The position numbers and the translations under genes were made by a program. Positions 18,274 through 60,665 of a stretch of 64,000 nt of DNA are shown here, piece by piece; within the stretch, counting starts at the first letter, position 1, and each line of letters opens with the position of its first letter. The DNA comes from Escherichia coli (GTDB lineage Bacteria > Pseudomonadota > Gammaproteobacteria > Enterobacterales > Enterobacteriaceae), in the NCBI RefSeq assembly GCF_003334335.1, contig NZ_QOWQ01000003.1; one strand, written 5' to 3'. The notes below the pieces were generated by a model. The model was not told the DNA's origin, did not search any database, and worked only from the letters and a program-made list of their open reading frames with translations.

Positions 18274-18883
18274 AGAAAAGGGGTAACACCGATTACCCCA
18301 TTGATAACCTTTCTTTATCCTCTTTTAAAACATCTTTTTAACGTCAATGATGCCATTGCTTAGCGTTATCATCAGGTAATCCGTTTGCGGATAACCAAAA
18401 ATGCAGGTTAATTGTTTTTTTAATAGCGAAATTTTCTATTCATTCGTGATCAAGATCACGATGCTGTCGCAATGTAAAAACATTGCAAGAATCAGGTTAA
18501 AATCATTTAAATTTACACACGCAACAAATATTGACCTACAAAACATTACACTGGCTATTTTTCAGAAACTGGACTATCTCACTAGTAAAAACGCTAAATA
18601 GCAGAACATATCGCCGTTAAGCCATCACCCCCCTCTCAGTGCAGTGAAAAAATCTGCCGTTACGTTTTTTGAAAAATTTAACGCTGGATAACATTTCCCG
18701 GAATGGTTGAATTCCCCGCCTCAGTTATATGTAACAGATTATTACAAAGGACTTGTCTGAAAGTGCAAGATAGTGAACATTACCTGCCGTTTCCCCTCCC
18801 ACTATATCAATTGCGCGTATGTTTTTTATACATAACGCGAGAAAGCACCCCCGTTAATATGGGATGTAAAAAAAGAGGTAAAA

Positions 18884-20386
18884 GTGTCCACTGCAAACCA
18901 AAAACCAACTGAAAGCGTCAGTTTGAACGCTTTCAAACAACCGAAGGCGTTCTATCTCATCTTCTCGATTGAGTTATGGGAACGTTTTGGTTATTACGGC
19001 CTACAAGGAATTATGGCTGTTTACCTGGTTAAACAACTGGGTATGTCTGAAGCGGATTCAATCACCCTTTTCTCTTCCTTTAGTGCCCTGGTTTATGGTC
19101 TGGTCGCTATCGGCGGCTGGTTAGGTGACAAGGTACTGGGTACTAAACGCGTAATTATGCTCGGCGCTATTGTGCTGGCGATTGGTTATGCTCTGGTTGC
19201 CTGGTCTGGTCACGACGCCGGTATCGTTTATATGGGTATGGCGGCTATTGCGGTCGGTAACGGCCTGTTTAAAGCTAACCCGTCTTCTCTGCTTTCTACA
19301 TGCTATGAGAAAAACGACCCGCGTCTGGACGGTGCATTCACCATGTACTACATGTCCGTCAACATCGGCTCTTTCTTCTCTATGATTGCTACGCCGTGGC
19401 TGGCCGCGAAATACGGCTGGAGTGTTGCGTTTGCGTTGAGCGTTGTAGGCCTGCTGATCACTATCGTTAACTTCGCCTTCTGCCAACGCTGGGTTAAACA
19501 GTACGGTTCAAAACCAGACTTCGAGCCTATCAACTACCGTAACCTGCTGCTGACCATTATTGGTGTTGTGGCACTGATCGCTATCGCCACCTGGCTGCTG
19601 CACAATCAGGAAGTTGCGCGTATGGCGCTGGGCGTTGTTGCCTTCGGTATCGTGGTTATCTTCGGTAAAGAAGCCTTCGCGATGAAAGGTGCTGCGCGTC
19701 GTAAAATGATCGTTGCCTTCATCCTGATGCTCGAAGCCATTATCTTCTTCGTGCTGTACAGCCAGATGCCAACGTCACTGAACTTCTTTGCGATTCGTAA
19801 CGTTGAGCACTCCATTCTGGGTCTGGCCGTAGAACCTGAGCAGTATCAGGCACTGAACCCGTTCTGGATCATCATCGGTAGTCCGATTCTGGCCGCTATC
19901 TATAACAAGATGGGCGATACCCTGCCGATGCCAACCAAGTTTGCAATCGGCATGGTGATGTGTTCTGGTGCGTTCCTGATTCTGCCGCTGGGTGCAAAAT
20001 TCGCGTCTGACGCTGGTATCGTGTCTGTAAGCTGGCTGGTCGCAAGCTATGGCCTGCAGAGCATCGGGGAACTGATGATCTCTGGTCTGGGTCTGGCAAT
20101 GGTTGCTCAACTCGTTCCGCAGCGTCTGATGGGCTTCATTATGGGTAGCTGGTTCCTGACCACTGCCGGTGCAAACCTGATTGGTGGTTATGTTGCGGGT
20201 ATGATGGCTGTGCCGGATAACGTTACCGATCCGCTGATGTCACTGGAAGTCTATGGTCGCGTATTCTTGCAGATTGGTGTCGCTACTGCCGTTATTGCAG
20301 TACTGATGCTGCTGACCGCGCCGAAACTGCACCGCATGACGCAGGATGACGCTGCAGACAAAGCGGCGAAAGCAGCCGTAGCGTAA
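18884..20386 (+). CDS. dtpA: Proton-dependent di/tripeptide permease DtpA (TppB), 500 aa, GTG start
   Basis: Track ORF 500 aa, POT-family motifs; GTG at 18884 preceded by AGAGG. Confidence 0.94.
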
Positions 20387-53318: not shown

Positions 53319-54923
53319 ATGAAAAAAATTGCTATTGTGGGTGCCGGGCCTACGGGGATCTACACCTTATTCTCGCTTCTACAGCAACAAACTCCACTTT
53401 CTATTTCTATCTTCGAGCAGGCTGACGAGGCCGGTGTCGGGATGCCATACAGTGATGAGGAAAACTCAAAAATGATGCTGGCAAATATTGCCAGTATTGA
53501 AATACCGCCGATTTATTGTACGTATCTCGAATGGCTACAAAAGCAAGAAGACAGCCATCTCCAGCGTTATGGCGTTAAAAAAGAAACCTTGCACGATCGT
53601 CAGTTTTTACCGCGAATTCTGCTGGGCGAATATTTCCGCGATCAATTTTTACGACTAGTAGACCAGGCACGACAGCAAAAATTTGCAGTGGCTGTTTATG
53701 AATCATGCCAGGTTACCGATCTGCAAATTACAAATGCTGGCGTCATGCTCGCTACAAATCAGGATTTACCCAGCGAGACGTTTGATTTAGCGGTGATCGC
53801 CACGGGTCACGTCTGGCCTGATGAAGAAGAAGCAACCCGAACGTATTTTCCCAGCCCGTGGTCAGGCCTGATGGAAGCAAAGGTCGATGCGTGTAACGTG
53901 GGTATTATGGGAACATCCTTGAGCGGACTGGATGCGGCAATGGCAGTGGCTATTCAGCATGGTTCGTTCATTGAAGATGATAAACAACACGTCGTTTTTC
54001 ACCGCGATAACGCAAGTGAAAAGCTAAATATCACGTTGTTGTCGCGCACGGGTATTTTACCCGAAGCCGATTTCTATTGCCCTATTCCCTACGAGCCCTT
54101 ACACATCGTCACCGATCAGGCATTAAATGCTGAGATTCAAAAAGGCGAAGAGGGCCTTTTGGATCGGGTATTTAGATTGATAGTAGAGGAAATCAAGTTT
54201 GCTGATCCAGACTGGAGTCAACGCATAGCCTTAGAGAGCCTGAATGTCGATTCCTTTGCTCAAGCCTGGTTTGCCGAGCGCAAACAACGCGACCCATTTG
54301 ACTGGGCAGAAAAAAATCTCCAGGAAGTCGAACGCAATAAACGAGAAAAACATACTGTTCCCTGGCGTTATGTCATTCTGCGCCTGCATGAAGCCGTACA
54401 GGAAATTGTTCCACATCTGAATGAACACGACCATAAACGGTTCAGTAAAGGCCTTGCCCGGGTTTTCATCGATAATTATGCGGCAATCCCTTCAGAGTCT
54501 ATTCGTCGCCTACTTGCCTTACGTGAAGCGGGAATCATTCATATTCTCGCCCTCGGTGAAGACTACAAAATGGAAATTAATGAGTCGCGCACCGTCCTGA
54601 AAACGGAAGACAACAGCTACTCGTTTGACGTTTTTATTGATGCCCGCGGACAACGTCCGCTTAAAGTGAAAGATATCCCTTTCCCTGGGCTACGCGAGCA
54701 ATTACAGAAAACAGGGGATGAAATCCCTGATGTTGGCGAAGATTATACGTTACAGCAACCCGAAGATATTCGTGGGCGCGTAGCGTTCGGCGCGTTGCCC
54801 TGGTTGATGCACGACCAGCCTTTCGTTCAGGGACTTACGGCATGTGCAGAAATTGGTGAGGCGATGGCTCGGGCGGTCGTAAAGCCTGCATCCCGTGCTC
54901 GTCGGCGTCTTTCGTTTGATTAA
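53319..54923 (+). CDS. ydhS: FAD/NAD(P)-binding protein YdhS, 534 aa
   Basis: Track ORF 534 aa with an N-terminal Rossmann dinucleotide-binding motif (IAIVGAGPTG). Confidence 0.9.
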   Translation: MKKIAIVGAGPTGIYTLFSLLQQQTPLSISIFEQADEAGVGMPYSDEENSKMMLANIASIEIPPIYCTYLEWLQKQEDSHLQRYGVKKETLHDRQFLPRILLGEYFRDQFLRLVDQARQQKFAVAVYESCQVTDLQITNAGVMLATNQDLPSETFDLAVIATGHVWPDEEEATRTYFPSPWSGLMEAKVDACNVGIMGTSLSGLDAAMAVAIQHGSFIEDDKQHVVFHRDNASEKLNITLLSRTGILPEADFYCPIPYEPLHIVTDQALNAEIQKGEEGLLDRVFRLIVEEIKFADPDWSQRIALESLNVDSFAQAWFAERKQRDPFDWAEKNLQEVERNKREKHTVPWRYVILRLHEAVQEIVPHLNEHDHKRFSKGLARVFIDNYAAIPSESIRRLLALREAGIIHILALGEDYKMEINESRTVLKTEDNSYSFDVFIDARGQRPLKVKDIPFPGLREQLQKTGDEIPDVGEDYTLQQPEDIRGRVAFGALPWLMHDQPFVQGLTACAEIGEAMARAVVKPASRARRRLSFD

Positions 54924-54934
54924 AGGTAAAGCTA

Positions 54935-55747
54935 TCAGCACTCAACAAACTGATGCTGTTCATTAAGACGATAGCGGACTCCGGCTCGAATATTGTTTTC
55001 ACCTTCAATGGCGACGGCGAAGCGAACTCTTTCGCCGTCATGATATGCCAGTGCGGCGCTTCCTCCTGGCCCGAGAATAATTGAGTCGACCACGCCCGTG
55101 CTCACTACCGTTGAATTTTCACCGCTGGCAATGATGTGTACATTGTCGCCGCTGTTGGCAATTCTGGCGTTTGCGCCAAAGCTGGCGATTTGCACCAGGT
55201 CACCATTACTGGCGACATGACACCGTTCACCCAATGTACAAACGCGTACTCGCATTCCGGTATTCGCAATCCGACTGCTATCTCCAGCGCTGCTTATCCG
55301 CGAAGAATTACCGGTTACAGCAACCCGTGCGCGTTCACCGGAGCTGCCAATGTGACTGTTAAAGCCGACACTTCCAATCCGCACGCTATAACCCATACTG
55401 GCAATTTGCGCGGCATACCCAGCGGTTGCGATTCTGGCGTTATCCTCACAACAGCCGATGCGAGCATGATCGTCGCTGCGGGCAAACTGACTGCAAAATG
55501 GTCTCTCTCCGGGGTCTGTGGCCAGTTTTTGCATAGAGGAAACTTCCTGATGCGCGAAGTTTTCATCCGCCAGCCATTTTTTCCACGCATACTCAACCAG
55601 ACTCTCCGCCCAGTCCGTATATCCTTCCTCAATCAGTGCATGATGAATATCGGCATAACTACCGCCGCGTGGGAAATGGCGCAGGAACCAGCGATACATC
55701 ACCGCTCCGATACGCCATTCTCGCAGGTCTGCTTGTGTAATGATCAT
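54935..55747 (-). CDS. ydhT: Protein YdhT, 270 aa, last gene of ydhYVWXUT; contains a regular 9-residue repeat
   Basis: Track ORF 270 aa; operon position; about 16 consecutive 9-aa units with a hydrophobic-I/V-x-S/T-x-G pattern. Confidence 0.9.
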   Translation of the reverse strand: MIITQADLREWRIGAVMYRWFLRHFPRGGSYADIHHALIEEGYTDWAESLVEYAWKKWLADENFAHQEVSSMQKLATDPGERPFCSQFARSDDHARIGCCEDNARIATAGYAAQIASMGYSVRIGSVGFNSHIGSSGERARVAVTGNSSRISSAGDSSRIANTGMRVRVCTLGERCHVASNGDLVQIASFGANARIANSGDNVHIIASGENSTVVSTGVVDSIILGPGGSAALAYHDGERVRFAVAIEGENNIRAGVRYRLNEQHQFVEC

Positions 55748-55750
55748 TCG

Positions 55751-56536
55751 TTAGTGCCGGTGATAGCCATCGACCATGCTTTTAAAGGTTTCGTGTGGCG
55801 TACGCCCCGTGGTGCAAAGATAAAGATGACCGAAGATAAAAAAGAGGCTTATAAATGCCAGAGCAAAATGTGTCTGCAATAACCAGTATCTTACGCCAGG
55901 AAACACATCTCCCACGGCTTGCGGATAGAGACACAGCAGCCCCGTCAATAGTAACAACGGCAGCAATCCATACATGACACCAACATAGGCGACCTGCTGT
56001 AAGGGATTAAATTTAGACTGGGTTGTTGCCGGGAAAGGATGTTCTTCCCCCTGCATAATGCCAAACAAATAAAATCGCGTTTGTTTTGCCGCTCGTTCCA
56101 GCCACCCCTGACGACGAATGCGATAGTGGTGACCATTATCCCCAACGGCATTGATCAGCACAAAGCCGAGCCAGCATGCCAGTAACAAAAATCCGCAAAC
56201 TTCATGCACCGCAACCAGACTTTTAACCGCAGTTGCGCCCACCATCGCAAAGTGATTTATCAGCCCACTGGCCAGCAACAATACAAAGAGTAACGCATTC
56301 GACCAGTGCCATAATCTGACCGCTTTGCTGTAAAGATAAATCTTCTCACCATGATCGGTGGCTGATTTCTTCACGCCACGAGCACGAAGCAAGGCATGCA
56401 GCCCCAGCACCAACCACATCCCAACCAGCAATACTCCGGCAATGATCAACCACACCGGCCAAAATTCGGGAGTGAACTGTGGCACATAGTTCGCTAACTG
56501 GCTCTGAAACTGTTCAGCATGTTGCGACGGGTTCAT
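55751..56536 (-). CDS. ydhU: PhsC/NrfD-like membrane anchor subunit YdhU, 261 aa
   Basis: Track ORF 261 aa, polytopic membrane protein; overlaps ydhX by 4 nt. Confidence 0.9.
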   Translation of the reverse strand: MNPSQHAEQFQSQLANYVPQFTPEFWPVWLIIAGVLLVGMWLVLGLHALLRARGVKKSATDHGEKIYLYSKAVRLWHWSNALLFVLLLASGLINHFAMVGATAVKSLVAVHEVCGFLLLACWLGFVLINAVGDNGHHYRIRRQGWLERAAKQTRFYLFGIMQGEEHPFPATTQSKFNPLQQVAYVGVMYGLLPLLLLTGLLCLYPQAVGDVFPGVRYWLLQTHFALAFISLFFIFGHLYLCTTGRTPHETFKSMVDGYHRH

Positions 56537-57201
56537 ACATTTTCCTTTTTAATCAAATGTTGACCGAACCGGCGATACAGATGCGGTTTCCCGGCACCAG
56601 GTAGCTGATATTGATAGTATTTATTTTGCTGCAACCACGCCTGAATTTCTGGGCTATCTTCGCGACCAAAGATCAATGCGTGTTCCGGGCAGGCGCTGAC
56701 GCAAATGGGCGGAAAGCCTTTTGCCAGTCGGGACTCAGCGCAGAAATCACATTTATCTGCCACTTTAGTGACAGGGTTAAGGTAGCGAACCTGGTACGGA
56801 CAAGCGCCAATGCAATAACTGCAGCCGATGCACTGCGATTTTTCTACCCGCACGATCCCCTGCTCATCACGCCACGACGCCCCCGTCGGGCAAACGTCGA
56901 TGCACGGAGCATCTTCGCAGTGCTGACATGACTGGCGAAAAAAGTGATACTGCGTTTCGTTGTCGTTATCGGTGACTGGAATGTGTGCTATCGATAAACG
57001 GCTTCCCTGAGCGGGGACGTGGTTAGTTTTACGGCATGCGCGGGCGCAAATATTACAGCCATTGCACCGTGACTCGTCATGAATCATGGCATACCGAACT
57101 TCCTTTTCTTGCCTCGTGTTCGCTAACAGAGAAGACGCAGAACCAGTAAAAAAGATTACTGTTCCCATCCCCAGAACAAATTTGCGTCGAGTGAAGGACA
57201 T
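56533..57201 (-). CDS. ydhX: Tat-exported 4Fe-4S ferredoxin-type protein YdhX, 222 aa
   Basis: Track ORF 239 aa trimmed to the ATG at 57201 (MSFTRRKFVLGMG..., twin-arginine motif); several CxxCxxCxxxCP clusters. Confidence 0.9.
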   Translation of the reverse strand: MSFTRRKFVLGMGTVIFFTGSASSLLANTRQEKEVRYAMIHDESRCNGCNICARACRKTNHVPAQGSRLSIAHIPVTDNDNETQYHFFRQSCQHCEDAPCIDVCPTGASWRDEQGIVRVEKSQCIGCSYCIGACPYQVRYLNPVTKVADKCDFCAESRLAKGFPPICVSACPEHALIFGREDSPEIQAWLQQNKYYQYQLPGAGKPHLYRRFGQHLIKKENV

Positions 57202-57264
57202 CTGATTATCCCCTAATGCAGTGGCTGCAACTGTCCACCCTATCCATGACATCTCCCTGAAATT

Positions 57265-57912
57265 TCAGGGGTTCTGAAACTGCTCTACCTCGAACCATTC
57301 GCATAAGCCATAAGCCTTGCCATAGGTCATAAATCGCTCGCTAAACAAGTACAACACCGCCGTCGATGACTCCACCTGCCGTATATCGGCATATTCAGGT
57401 GCAACATCCATCGCGGCGATCGCGGCTTCAATCTGCGCTTCCTGGAAGTAATATGGCGCTTGCATCAGCATGGCGACTTTGTAAGGACGAGGATACGTCT
57501 GGCACTCAAAACGAACGGCGTGTGCAATGGCGCGACAAATGTCCTGCTCCACAACTTGCAAAGACATCGCCGCGTAGTTTTCACTCATGGCCTGCGTTGA
57601 GTAATAGTAATCATCCTTGCTTCCCGTCAAACAAGCGATATCCGCGTAGTCTCCGTTCTGCTTAATGCTTTCCAGCAAAACTGACAGTTCCTCTTCTGCA
57701 ACCAAATAGGGTGGCGAGAGAAACACGGCGCGCGCCACCAGCTGCCCAGCCGCAGAATGCTGGCGAATGAACTCAGCCAGGATTTCAGCAGGTTCTGGTT
57801 CGGTTACCGTATCAACGGGGTGACGCATCCCCTGCAACCATTGCCGCTTCGCCTCGTCAACTTCGCTGACTTTCGCTAACGGCAATTCATCCTGATGGTT
57901 CATCTTACCCAT
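57265..57912 (-). CDS. ydhW: Protein YdhW, 215 aa, unknown function
   Basis: Track ORF 215 aa; operon position between ydhV and ydhX. Confidence 0.88.
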   Translation of the reverse strand: MGKMNHQDELPLAKVSEVDEAKRQWLQGMRHPVDTVTEPEPAEILAEFIRQHSAAGQLVARAVFLSPPYLVAEEELSVLLESIKQNGDYADIACLTGSKDDYYYSTQAMSENYAAMSLQVVEQDICRAIAHAVRFECQTYPRPYKVAMLMQAPYYFQEAQIEAAIAAMDVAPEYADIRQVESSTAVLYLFSERFMTYGKAYGLCEWFEVEQFQNP

Positions 57913-57915
57913 TCC

Positions 57916-60665
<2,750 letters not shown>

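Follow-up and report, generated by a model that had tools for sequence, protein, structure and literature searches.

The stretch of DNA analysed here, hereafter the window, comprises 64,000 nucleotides of Escherichia coli (contig NZ_QOWQ01000003.1) and contains at positions 54935..55747 on the minus strand the gene ydhT (270 codons plus the stop codon at 54935-54937, according to the list of open reading frames), whose product YdhT is the subject of this report. The protein matches the NCBIfam equivalog model NF007410, named 'protein YdhT', with 489.7 bits (cutoff 300), residues 2-270 being aligned to positions 1-269 of the 269 positions of the profile. Upstream on the same strand (55751..60665; open reading frames and NCBIfam names) are located ydhU, coding for a cytochrome b (55751-56536), ydhX, coding for an iron-sulphur (Fe-S) protein with the twin-arginine motif RRKF (56533-57252), ydhW (57265-57912), ydhV, coding for a member of the aldehyde:ferredoxin-oxidoreductase family (57916-60018), and ydhY (60039-60665), which carries an internal stop in the source strain. 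Since these genes lie upstream and ydhS converges on ydhT, the locus is the E. coli ydhYVWXUT region. The ydhYVWXUT operon is activated by FNR and repressed by NarL/NarP, and ydhT is its last gene. Among 5426 complete E. coli genomes, 5418 contain ydhT as a single copy annotated under this name; ydhT is a core E. coli gene.

YdhT is built from three parts: a helical head, a rigid two-sheet parallel beta-solenoid of eight coils and a beta cap. We hold this build, and the structural and family statements that belong to it, with high confidence. The N-terminal domain with five helices (residues 1-77; 55517..55747, minus strand like all parts of the gene) corresponds to Pfam family PF27195 (YdhT_N) and contains the conserved motif YRWFLRxFPxGGxY. 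It is followed by a weakly conserved linker (residues 78-82; 55502-55516), the solenoid (residues 83-226; 55070..55501) with 16 nonapeptide units, which we read as eight coils of 18 residues each, and the C-terminal beta cap (residues 227-270, PGGSAALAYHDGERVRFAVAIEGENNIRAGVRYRL...; 54938..55069). The YdhT_N domain is present on a protein 99% identical to YdhT (P0001) and on nearly all homologues; this assignment is taken from the precomputed annotation of the homologues, and the Pfam-A library that we scanned is one without this family. The scan of YdhT against that library gave no significant match (best: DUF6876, E 0.16), and the library holds no model for the repeat region and the cap. The database entries for YdhT (NF007410 and PF27195) provide its name and its N-terminal domain and nothing further. 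YdhT is a soluble, cytoplasmic protein, in which neither a hydrophobic segment nor a signal peptide was found (maximal KD19 value 1.23).

An earlier note, made from the sequence alone, had reported about 16 consecutive 9-residue repeats in YdhT, and this number was recovered: 14 units are plain from the sequence alone (residues 101-226), and two degenerate units precede them (residues 83-100), which form strands in the AlphaFold2 model and bring the total to 16. Autocorrelation of residues 93-245 with BLOSUM62 revealed peaks solely at lags 9, 18, 27 and 36 (z = 11.0, 10.1, 9.5 and 9.4), and none of 5000 shuffled sequences matched the observed autocorrelation at these lags. All remaining lags were at or below chance, among them lags 5 and 6 (z = -2.1 and -0.3), so that a 5- or 6-residue period is absent; the hexapeptide and pentapeptide repeat classes, for which no Pfam match was found either, were rejected. 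The extent given in the note had to be corrected. The array is real, but the first 9-mer listed, ARIGCCEDN, starts at residue 95 and not at 93, and the periodic part ends at G226 and not at about residue 245, residues 227-270 being the non-periodic conserved cap; the interval 55010-55490 named there therefore corresponds to residues ~87-246, whereas the array proper occupies 55070-55501.

The units of YdhT follow the register G-[DENY]-x-[AS]-[RKHQ]-[IV]-[AGS]-[SN]-x, and the consensus of the whole family (159 members, 6-23 units) is G-[DYN]-x-[AS]-[QRK]-[IL]-[AG]-[SA]-S. Conservation of the periodicity was checked in orthologues, and its loss was not seen. In Citrobacter, Edwardsiella, Limnobaculum/Jinshanibacter, Brenneria, Serratia and Proteus the period is intact without any insertion or deletion in the array, and the orthologues have 16-19 units; Brenneria salicis and GCA_003666165.1 are exceptions, each lacking an internal block of ~46 residues. 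A tandem repeat at the DNA level is no longer present in E. coli ydhT. In the operon copies every unit is distinct and conserved position by position, the best-conserved central units of YdhT being those of residues 137-163. An antisense open reading frame of 248 amino acids on the plus strand (55136-55882) crosses the repeat region of ydhT, and long open reading frames in alternative frames and on the complementary strand were likewise seen in a prophage copy of the gene in Limnobaculum (L058); such reading frames most likely arise as a side effect of the repetitive codon composition and are not genes.

The fold was predicted with AlphaFold2 from an alignment of 60 sequences, resulting in a model with a mean predicted local distance difference test score (pLDDT) of 94 and a predicted template modelling score (pTM) of 0.89. 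The model contains five helices (residues 5-77), 16 short strands (residues 87-225) that are spaced exactly nine residues apart and alternate in length between five and four residues, and cap strands at 230-236, 241-247, 258-261 and 267-269. Consecutive repeats are thus predicted to stack as parallel strands, which is what defines the beta-solenoid fold class. The beta-solenoid proposed in the earlier note is borne out by this model, and a non-repetitive globular fold was not obtained; its description as a beta-helix with one repeat per turn probably does not hold. The alternating strand lengths, together with top structural matches that are two-sheet solenoids and would fit coils of ~18-19 residues, lead us to infer that one coil consists of two nonapeptides (18 residues). 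In each unit, the glycine would be located in the turn and the Ile/Val would point into the core. The DNA repeats of phage copies of the gene were examined with Tandem Repeats Finder (TRF) for their bearing on the 18-residue coil; the periods obtained, 27 and 81 bp with none at 54 bp, speak neither for nor against it.

Foldseek searches against the AlphaFold database identified orthologue models with the same fold (TM up to 0.95). Among experimental structures the highest-scoring match was the Marinomonas Ca-dependent antifreeze protein (3p4g; 16.6, 169 residues aligned, 3.5 Å), followed by Curli CsgA (8c50; 15.4) and a ryegrass ice-recrystallisation inhibitor (3ult; 14.3); various tailspikes, RTX domains, SufB/SufD and autotransporter passengers scored between 10 and 14. 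A sequence search of the PDB with YdhT alone gave no match, and profile searches gave only sub-threshold matches (RTX of CyaA, E 0.02 with the family profile; a PPR protein, E 0.7 with the N-terminal domain). The repeat is a new sequence family inside a well-known fold class.

YdhT is under strong purifying selection. Compared with an 84%-identical orthologue that lies in the same neighbourhood including ydhS and ydhR (L027), the ratio of non-synonymous to synonymous substitution rates (dN/dS, Nei-Gojobori method) is 0.08 for the whole of ydhT, 0.13 for the N-terminal head, 0.04 for the repeats and 0 for the cap, where no non-synonymous change was found; the neighbouring ydhU has a value of 0.10. 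The cap is also the most conserved segment among the operon orthologues (mean conservation 0.73, head 0.61), with the consensus GG[CS]AALAYHDGxRxRFAxAxEGENGIxAGVxYRL. In the same comparison (54935-56536 with L027 6164-7765), the synonymous divergence (dS) of ydhT is 0.97 (repeats 1.5) and thereby exceeds that of its neighbour ydhU (0.34) roughly threefold; recombination, differences in codon usage or a mutational bias in the repeats are possible causes.

The linkage of ydhT to the ydh genes is conserved in at least eight Enterobacterales genera. In a genome scan with one genome per species, 39 of 45 loci showed the colinear order V-W-X-U-T with ydhT directly after ydhU; because the scan patterns had been built from operon-type sequences, this is not an unbiased frequency and favours operon copies. 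The 39 loci belong to Escherichia, Citrobacter, a metagenome-assembled genome labelled Raoultella, Limnobaculum, Brenneria, Serratia (marcescens), Proteus and Symbiopectobacterium, and the same colinearity was found in three further loci (L005, L007 and L027). Flanking genes vary among genera, as seen for Jinshanibacter, Edwardsiella, L007 and E. coli. In Edwardsiella tarda (L006, 3690-8954) the order is Y-V-W-X-T: ydhU is absent and ydhT follows directly after ydhX. The Edwardsiella ydh cluster adjoins the nap cluster for the periplasmic nitrate reductase, and the enzyme may have a different membrane partner there. The earlier note had rightly placed ydhT at the end of the operon and had called a repeat scaffold at this position unexpected; the arrangement is no oddity of E. 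coli, since it is kept across Enterobacterales, and what is unexpected is the kinship with a phage family described below.

In E. coli the ydhU stop and the ydhT start form the junction TAA-CGA-ATG (55745..55753, minus strand) with a gap of 3 nt. The spacing is short elsewhere too: in Jinshanibacter the two genes overlap by 1 nt, and in L007 they are 37 nt apart. No sigma-70-like promoter site was found in 54700-56000. A gap of this size is consistent with translational coupling, and YdhT is co-inherited, and probably also co-translated, with the other ydh genes. Ydh is a class V tungsten/molybdenum oxidoreductase, and conserved co-location and likely co-expression with ydhV, ydhW and ydhX, as expected of a gene for one of its subunits, were found for ydhT; database names such as 'oxidoreductase subunit' for YdhT relatives appear to rest on this gene context only. 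No physiological role is known for the Ydh enzyme (PMC13328260).

An exhaustive search for the family, with a threshold of E <= 1e-3, identified 611 representative clusters, of which many have a length of 300-550 amino acids. YdhT matches phrog_4433 of the PHROG database, whose function label is 'unknown', with E 1.7e-6. In phage genomes, tblastn revealed full-length relatives in Edwardsiella phage GF-2 (labelled 'collagen-like'; 90% of YdhT covered with 36% identity) and Komagataeibacter phage phiKX1 (29.9% identity over 96%, the gene itself being labelled ydhT) as well as partial matches in Paracoccus phage Shpa and metagenomic phages. With a family member of the DUF7666 type as the query, 71 phage records were matched, which belong to phages of Pseudomonas, Salmonella, Ralstonia, Vibrio and Acinetobacter. 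In addition, ydhT with 98.9% identity was found in the unannotated record CP025887.1 ('Escherichia phage 503046', 23 kb; 18751-19560), which is probably a piece of an E. coli chromosome deposited as a phage and not a true phage copy.

The gene takes consistent positions in phage genomes. In the leftward early operon of GF-2 (ORF55), of the viral contig L011 and of Salmonella phage ES18 (gp53) it directly follows the gene for the N antiterminator; the order in L011 is repressor, BstA, N and then the family gene, and ES18 gp53, with gene 24 on one side and cIII/kil/erf on the other, is provided with a putative terminator of its own. In other lambdoid phages the slot directly after N is occupied by variable accessory genes. 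In phiKX1, L012, L015 and the Limnobaculum L058 prophage the family gene has a repressor or antirepressor gene as its neighbour, and genes for recombination exonucleases follow shortly downstream. Two of these copies contain near-identical 27-bp DNA repeats, 15 copies matching by 89-93% (L058 9277-9681 and L011 6286-6695). In an evolution experiment with Serratia symbiotica a 54-bp in-frame deletion was reported in 'ydhT_1', which is located inside a mitomycin-inducible prophage (PMC12505973). This deletion, a single event, corresponds to two units. The number of units in phage copies is evidently unstable.

Three types of heads are combined with the shared solenoid and cap (seen in the family alignment in P0084, P0097, P0098, P0117-P0121 and others, and in the phage matches H38, H42 and H44), namely YdhT_N, DUF7666 and a type that we call 'CGNGLHG' after its motif. 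The DUF7666 head (PF24703) replaces YdhT_N in 20 of 60 aligned relatives, and YdhT itself has no DUF7666 match. The cap is common to the wider family, including the phage proteins of the DUF7666 type. The DUF7666 head carries the motif CRGFQY...CxSGFHxCExPLD; it shares C-x-G-[FL]-H with the CGNGLHG head, and the conserved Cys and His of this motif could form a metal or catalytic site. Homologues in Acinetobacter phages are labelled 'putative ADP-ribosyltransferase'.

In a neighbour-joining tree of head and cap, all operon-linked sequences were grouped in a single clade by each of 100 bootstrap replicates, and the clade nearest to them contains GF-2, the L058 prophage copy, the viral contig L011 and P0065; in Limnobaculum allomyrinae a prophage copy is present besides the operon copy. 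YdhT is the operon-fixed chromosomal branch of a family otherwise made of early genes of temperate phages, one lineage of which was fixed as the last gene of ydhYVWX(U)T in Enterobacterales. Because the family is broad in phages and the operon copies form a single clade, it is, with reasonable likelihood, the more economical history that an ancestor of the enterobacteria captured a phage gene. YdhT may act there as a rod-like scaffold or adaptor, which would bind a partner from the same operon via head, cap and the central coils of residues 137-163. Taken as a whole, a solenoid from a phage family that was turned into a Ydh scaffold or adaptor is the explanation we slightly favour; the putative scaffold or adaptor function as such we put at just short of an even chance. 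Our inference that YdhT has no catalytic role is based on the lack of any match to an enzyme family and on the invariant residues, which are structural glycines and cap residues; no invariant polar residues were found besides the glycine ladder and the cap residues. Narrower still, and tentative, is the idea that a phage early protein with a modular head on a solenoid stalk was captured once by an ancestor of Enterobacterales and has since served the respiratory molybdo/tungsto-enzyme YdhYVWXU as a dedicated subunit or assembly factor without catalytic activity.

Several points weigh against a Ydh scaffold or adaptor of phage origin. The direction from phage to chromosome is suggested only by the breadth of the family. 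YdhT diverges much faster than the enzyme subunits and is, together with YdhW, the fastest-evolving of the Ydh members: where YdhV is ~80% identical, YdhX is ~67%, YdhU ~61%, YdhW ~42% and YdhT 33-41% identical. The phage relatives work without any Ydh protein; therefore, the intrinsic activity of the family would be independent of the oxidoreductase. The membrane subunit YdhU cannot be the obligatory or sole partner because Edwardsiella keeps ydhT and lacks ydhU. The operon of Cetobacterium somerae for the same enzyme class has three genes, for L, S and a third subunit, which is named both 'W' and 'X' (PMC13328260), and YdhT is therefore not a universal component. The gene content of ydh operons differs between lineages (PMC13328260); together with the three-gene operon this makes YdhT look like a lineage-specific addition. 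In addition, the coil of 18 residues is derived from DSSP strand assignments and fold matches and not from the coordinates, and the handedness of the solenoid would be deduced likewise.

In the best-surviving alternative, YdhT is a retained phage 'moron' that merely uses the anaerobic promoter of the operon and has a role unrelated to the oxidoreductase, so that an early-phage function such as host takeover, exclusion or anti-defence would have been kept. The identical architecture of YdhT_N head, solenoid and cap in phage proteins, the slot directly after N in three lambdoid phages and the coexistence of operon and prophage copies in Limnobaculum allomyrinae fit with such a history, as do the fast divergence relative to YdhV and the three-gene operon of Cetobacterium somerae, the sole characterised non-enterobacterial operon of this enzyme class. 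A gene only borrowing a promoter is harder to reconcile with a slot after ydhU or ydhX that is fixed in at least eight genera with differing flanks and goes back to a single origin, with the gap of only 3 nt and with the dN/dS value of 0.08. The operon repeats also lack the DNA homogeneity of the phage copies and are conserved unit by unit, and PADLOC models gave no match to YdhT. We consider this alternative unlikely, though it deserves more weight than any of the others.

A cofactor-assembly scaffold for the Fe-S proteins of the operon, comparable to SufB/SufD, is improbable. Apart from generic beta-helix matches, only one cysteine points in this direction, and this residue is a serine in E. 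coli YdhT, no cysteine being invariant among the orthologues. The Suf proteins rank 10th and 29th among the generic beta-helix matches with 4-9% identity, and the phage relatives have no Fe-S context. The chance of a cytoskeletal or amyloid-like solenoid, with YdhT molecules joined end to end into polymers in the manner of bactofilins or curli, is smaller again: in the AlphaFold2 model both ends of the solenoid appear closed by folded, conserved domains, and neither a Pfam match to bactofilin (PF04519) or curlin repeats nor a secretion signal was found. An RTX calcium beta-roll or an ice-binding or adhesin repeat is very improbable, since the GGxGxD motif is absent, no HemolysinCabind match appeared even with domain matches listed up to E 10, a signal peptide is lacking, ydhT is surrounded by ydhS and ydhU/X/W/V and not by secretion genes, the model is confident without ions, and the names 'hemolysin', 'ice nucleation protein' and 'collagen-like' of relatives are automatic labels on repetitive sequence. 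The RTX, ice-binding and collagen readings were rejected because their defining motifs and secretion features are missing. DNA mimicry by analogy to pentapeptide-repeat proteins was likewise discarded, as the net charge of the solenoid is ~0 per unit across 141 family members.

The surroundings of ydhT in the window provided further observations. In the source strain codon 22 of ydhY is an in-frame TAA (60600-60602, minus strand; MNPVDRPLLDIGLTRLEFLRI, the stop, then GKGLAG...). A 61-mer covering this stop has exact matches in 3 of 5393 E. coli genomes, among them strain SCU-308, in which ydhY is annotated as a pseudogene ('internal stop'); ydhY of a typical strain is intact. Because of this stop the Ydh system may be defective in the source strain, ydhT itself being intact. 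The genes ydhS and ydhT are convergent with 11 bp between the stop codons (window 54921-54937), and the sole terminator-like hairpin at which ydhT transcripts could end was found on the minus strand at 54712-54729, ~200 nt into ydhS. The pair ydhS-ydhT has been listed as an 'excludon' with overlapping transcripts (PMC12288877). About 3 kb from ydhT, ydhQ (418 amino acids, NCBIfam NF007409; 51059-52315, minus strand) shows partial matches to passenger regions of Ag43 and AIDA-I and has no barrel domain; judged from these matches, it is a probable second beta-helix protein.

The gene and its name were already known, and the fold can likewise be seen in publicly available AlphaFold models of orthologues. 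In the portions available of the publications that mention ydhT there is no description of its fold or function, and in the literature searched neither the repeat and its fold nor the connection to phages is described, and DUF7666 is not mentioned. The gene is one ranked feature in a combined pangenome model of Salmonella and E. coli (PMC12579225), where we suspect that it only marks the species, and it appears in a site listing obtained by systematic evolution of ligands by exponential enrichment (SELEX) (PMC3535384); 'ydhT' in PMC5120140 is a misprint for yhdT. The findings on YdhT do not overturn current understanding. They turn an anonymous open reading frame, a 'y-gene' of E. coli K-12, into testable hypotheses by means of its fold, its constraint and its linkage to the ydh genes. 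If YdhT is indeed a captured subunit or assembly factor of YdhYVWXU, a core anaerobic redox complex would contain a virus-derived structural part, and by extension the more than 600 phage clusters would represent an undescribed class of early effectors with one stalk and differing heads. Both sides might profit from the phage link: the intrinsic activity of the family could come to light through phage genetics, and YdhT is a well-behaved member with non-repetitive DNA for structural work.

The closest known relatives are the DUF7666 proteins (PF24703, phrog_4433) such as ES18 gp53, which share with YdhT the nonapeptide solenoid with a variable number of units and the cap (E down to <= 1e-20) and have the same fold according to Foldseek. 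They differ in their Cys/His-rich head, where YdhT has the helical YdhT_N domain; in YdhT the units have diverged and their number is fixed in Escherichia and most Citrobacter, whereas the phage copies consist of near-identical 27-bp DNA repeats. Unlike these phage and prophage proteins, YdhT is encoded in a chromosomal operon. The antifreeze protein region IV of Marinomonas primoryensis (3p4g), 8c50 and 3ult share 8-18% identity with YdhT, and nothing indicates homology; they are extracellular proteins with ice-binding or amyloid character, whereas YdhT has folded domains at both ends. Bactofilins polymerise head to head through free solenoid ends; in the YdhT model both ends run into folded domains, which argues against free ends. 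The RTX beta-roll (CyaA block V) resembles YdhT in its period of nine residues and, as far as the model suggests, in coil length. YdhT has neither the GGxGxDxUx consensus nor the calcium-ligand Asp, is cytoplasmic and gives no Pfam match; according to our interpretation of the model, its solenoid would be held together by an Ile/Ala/Ser core and not by bound calcium.

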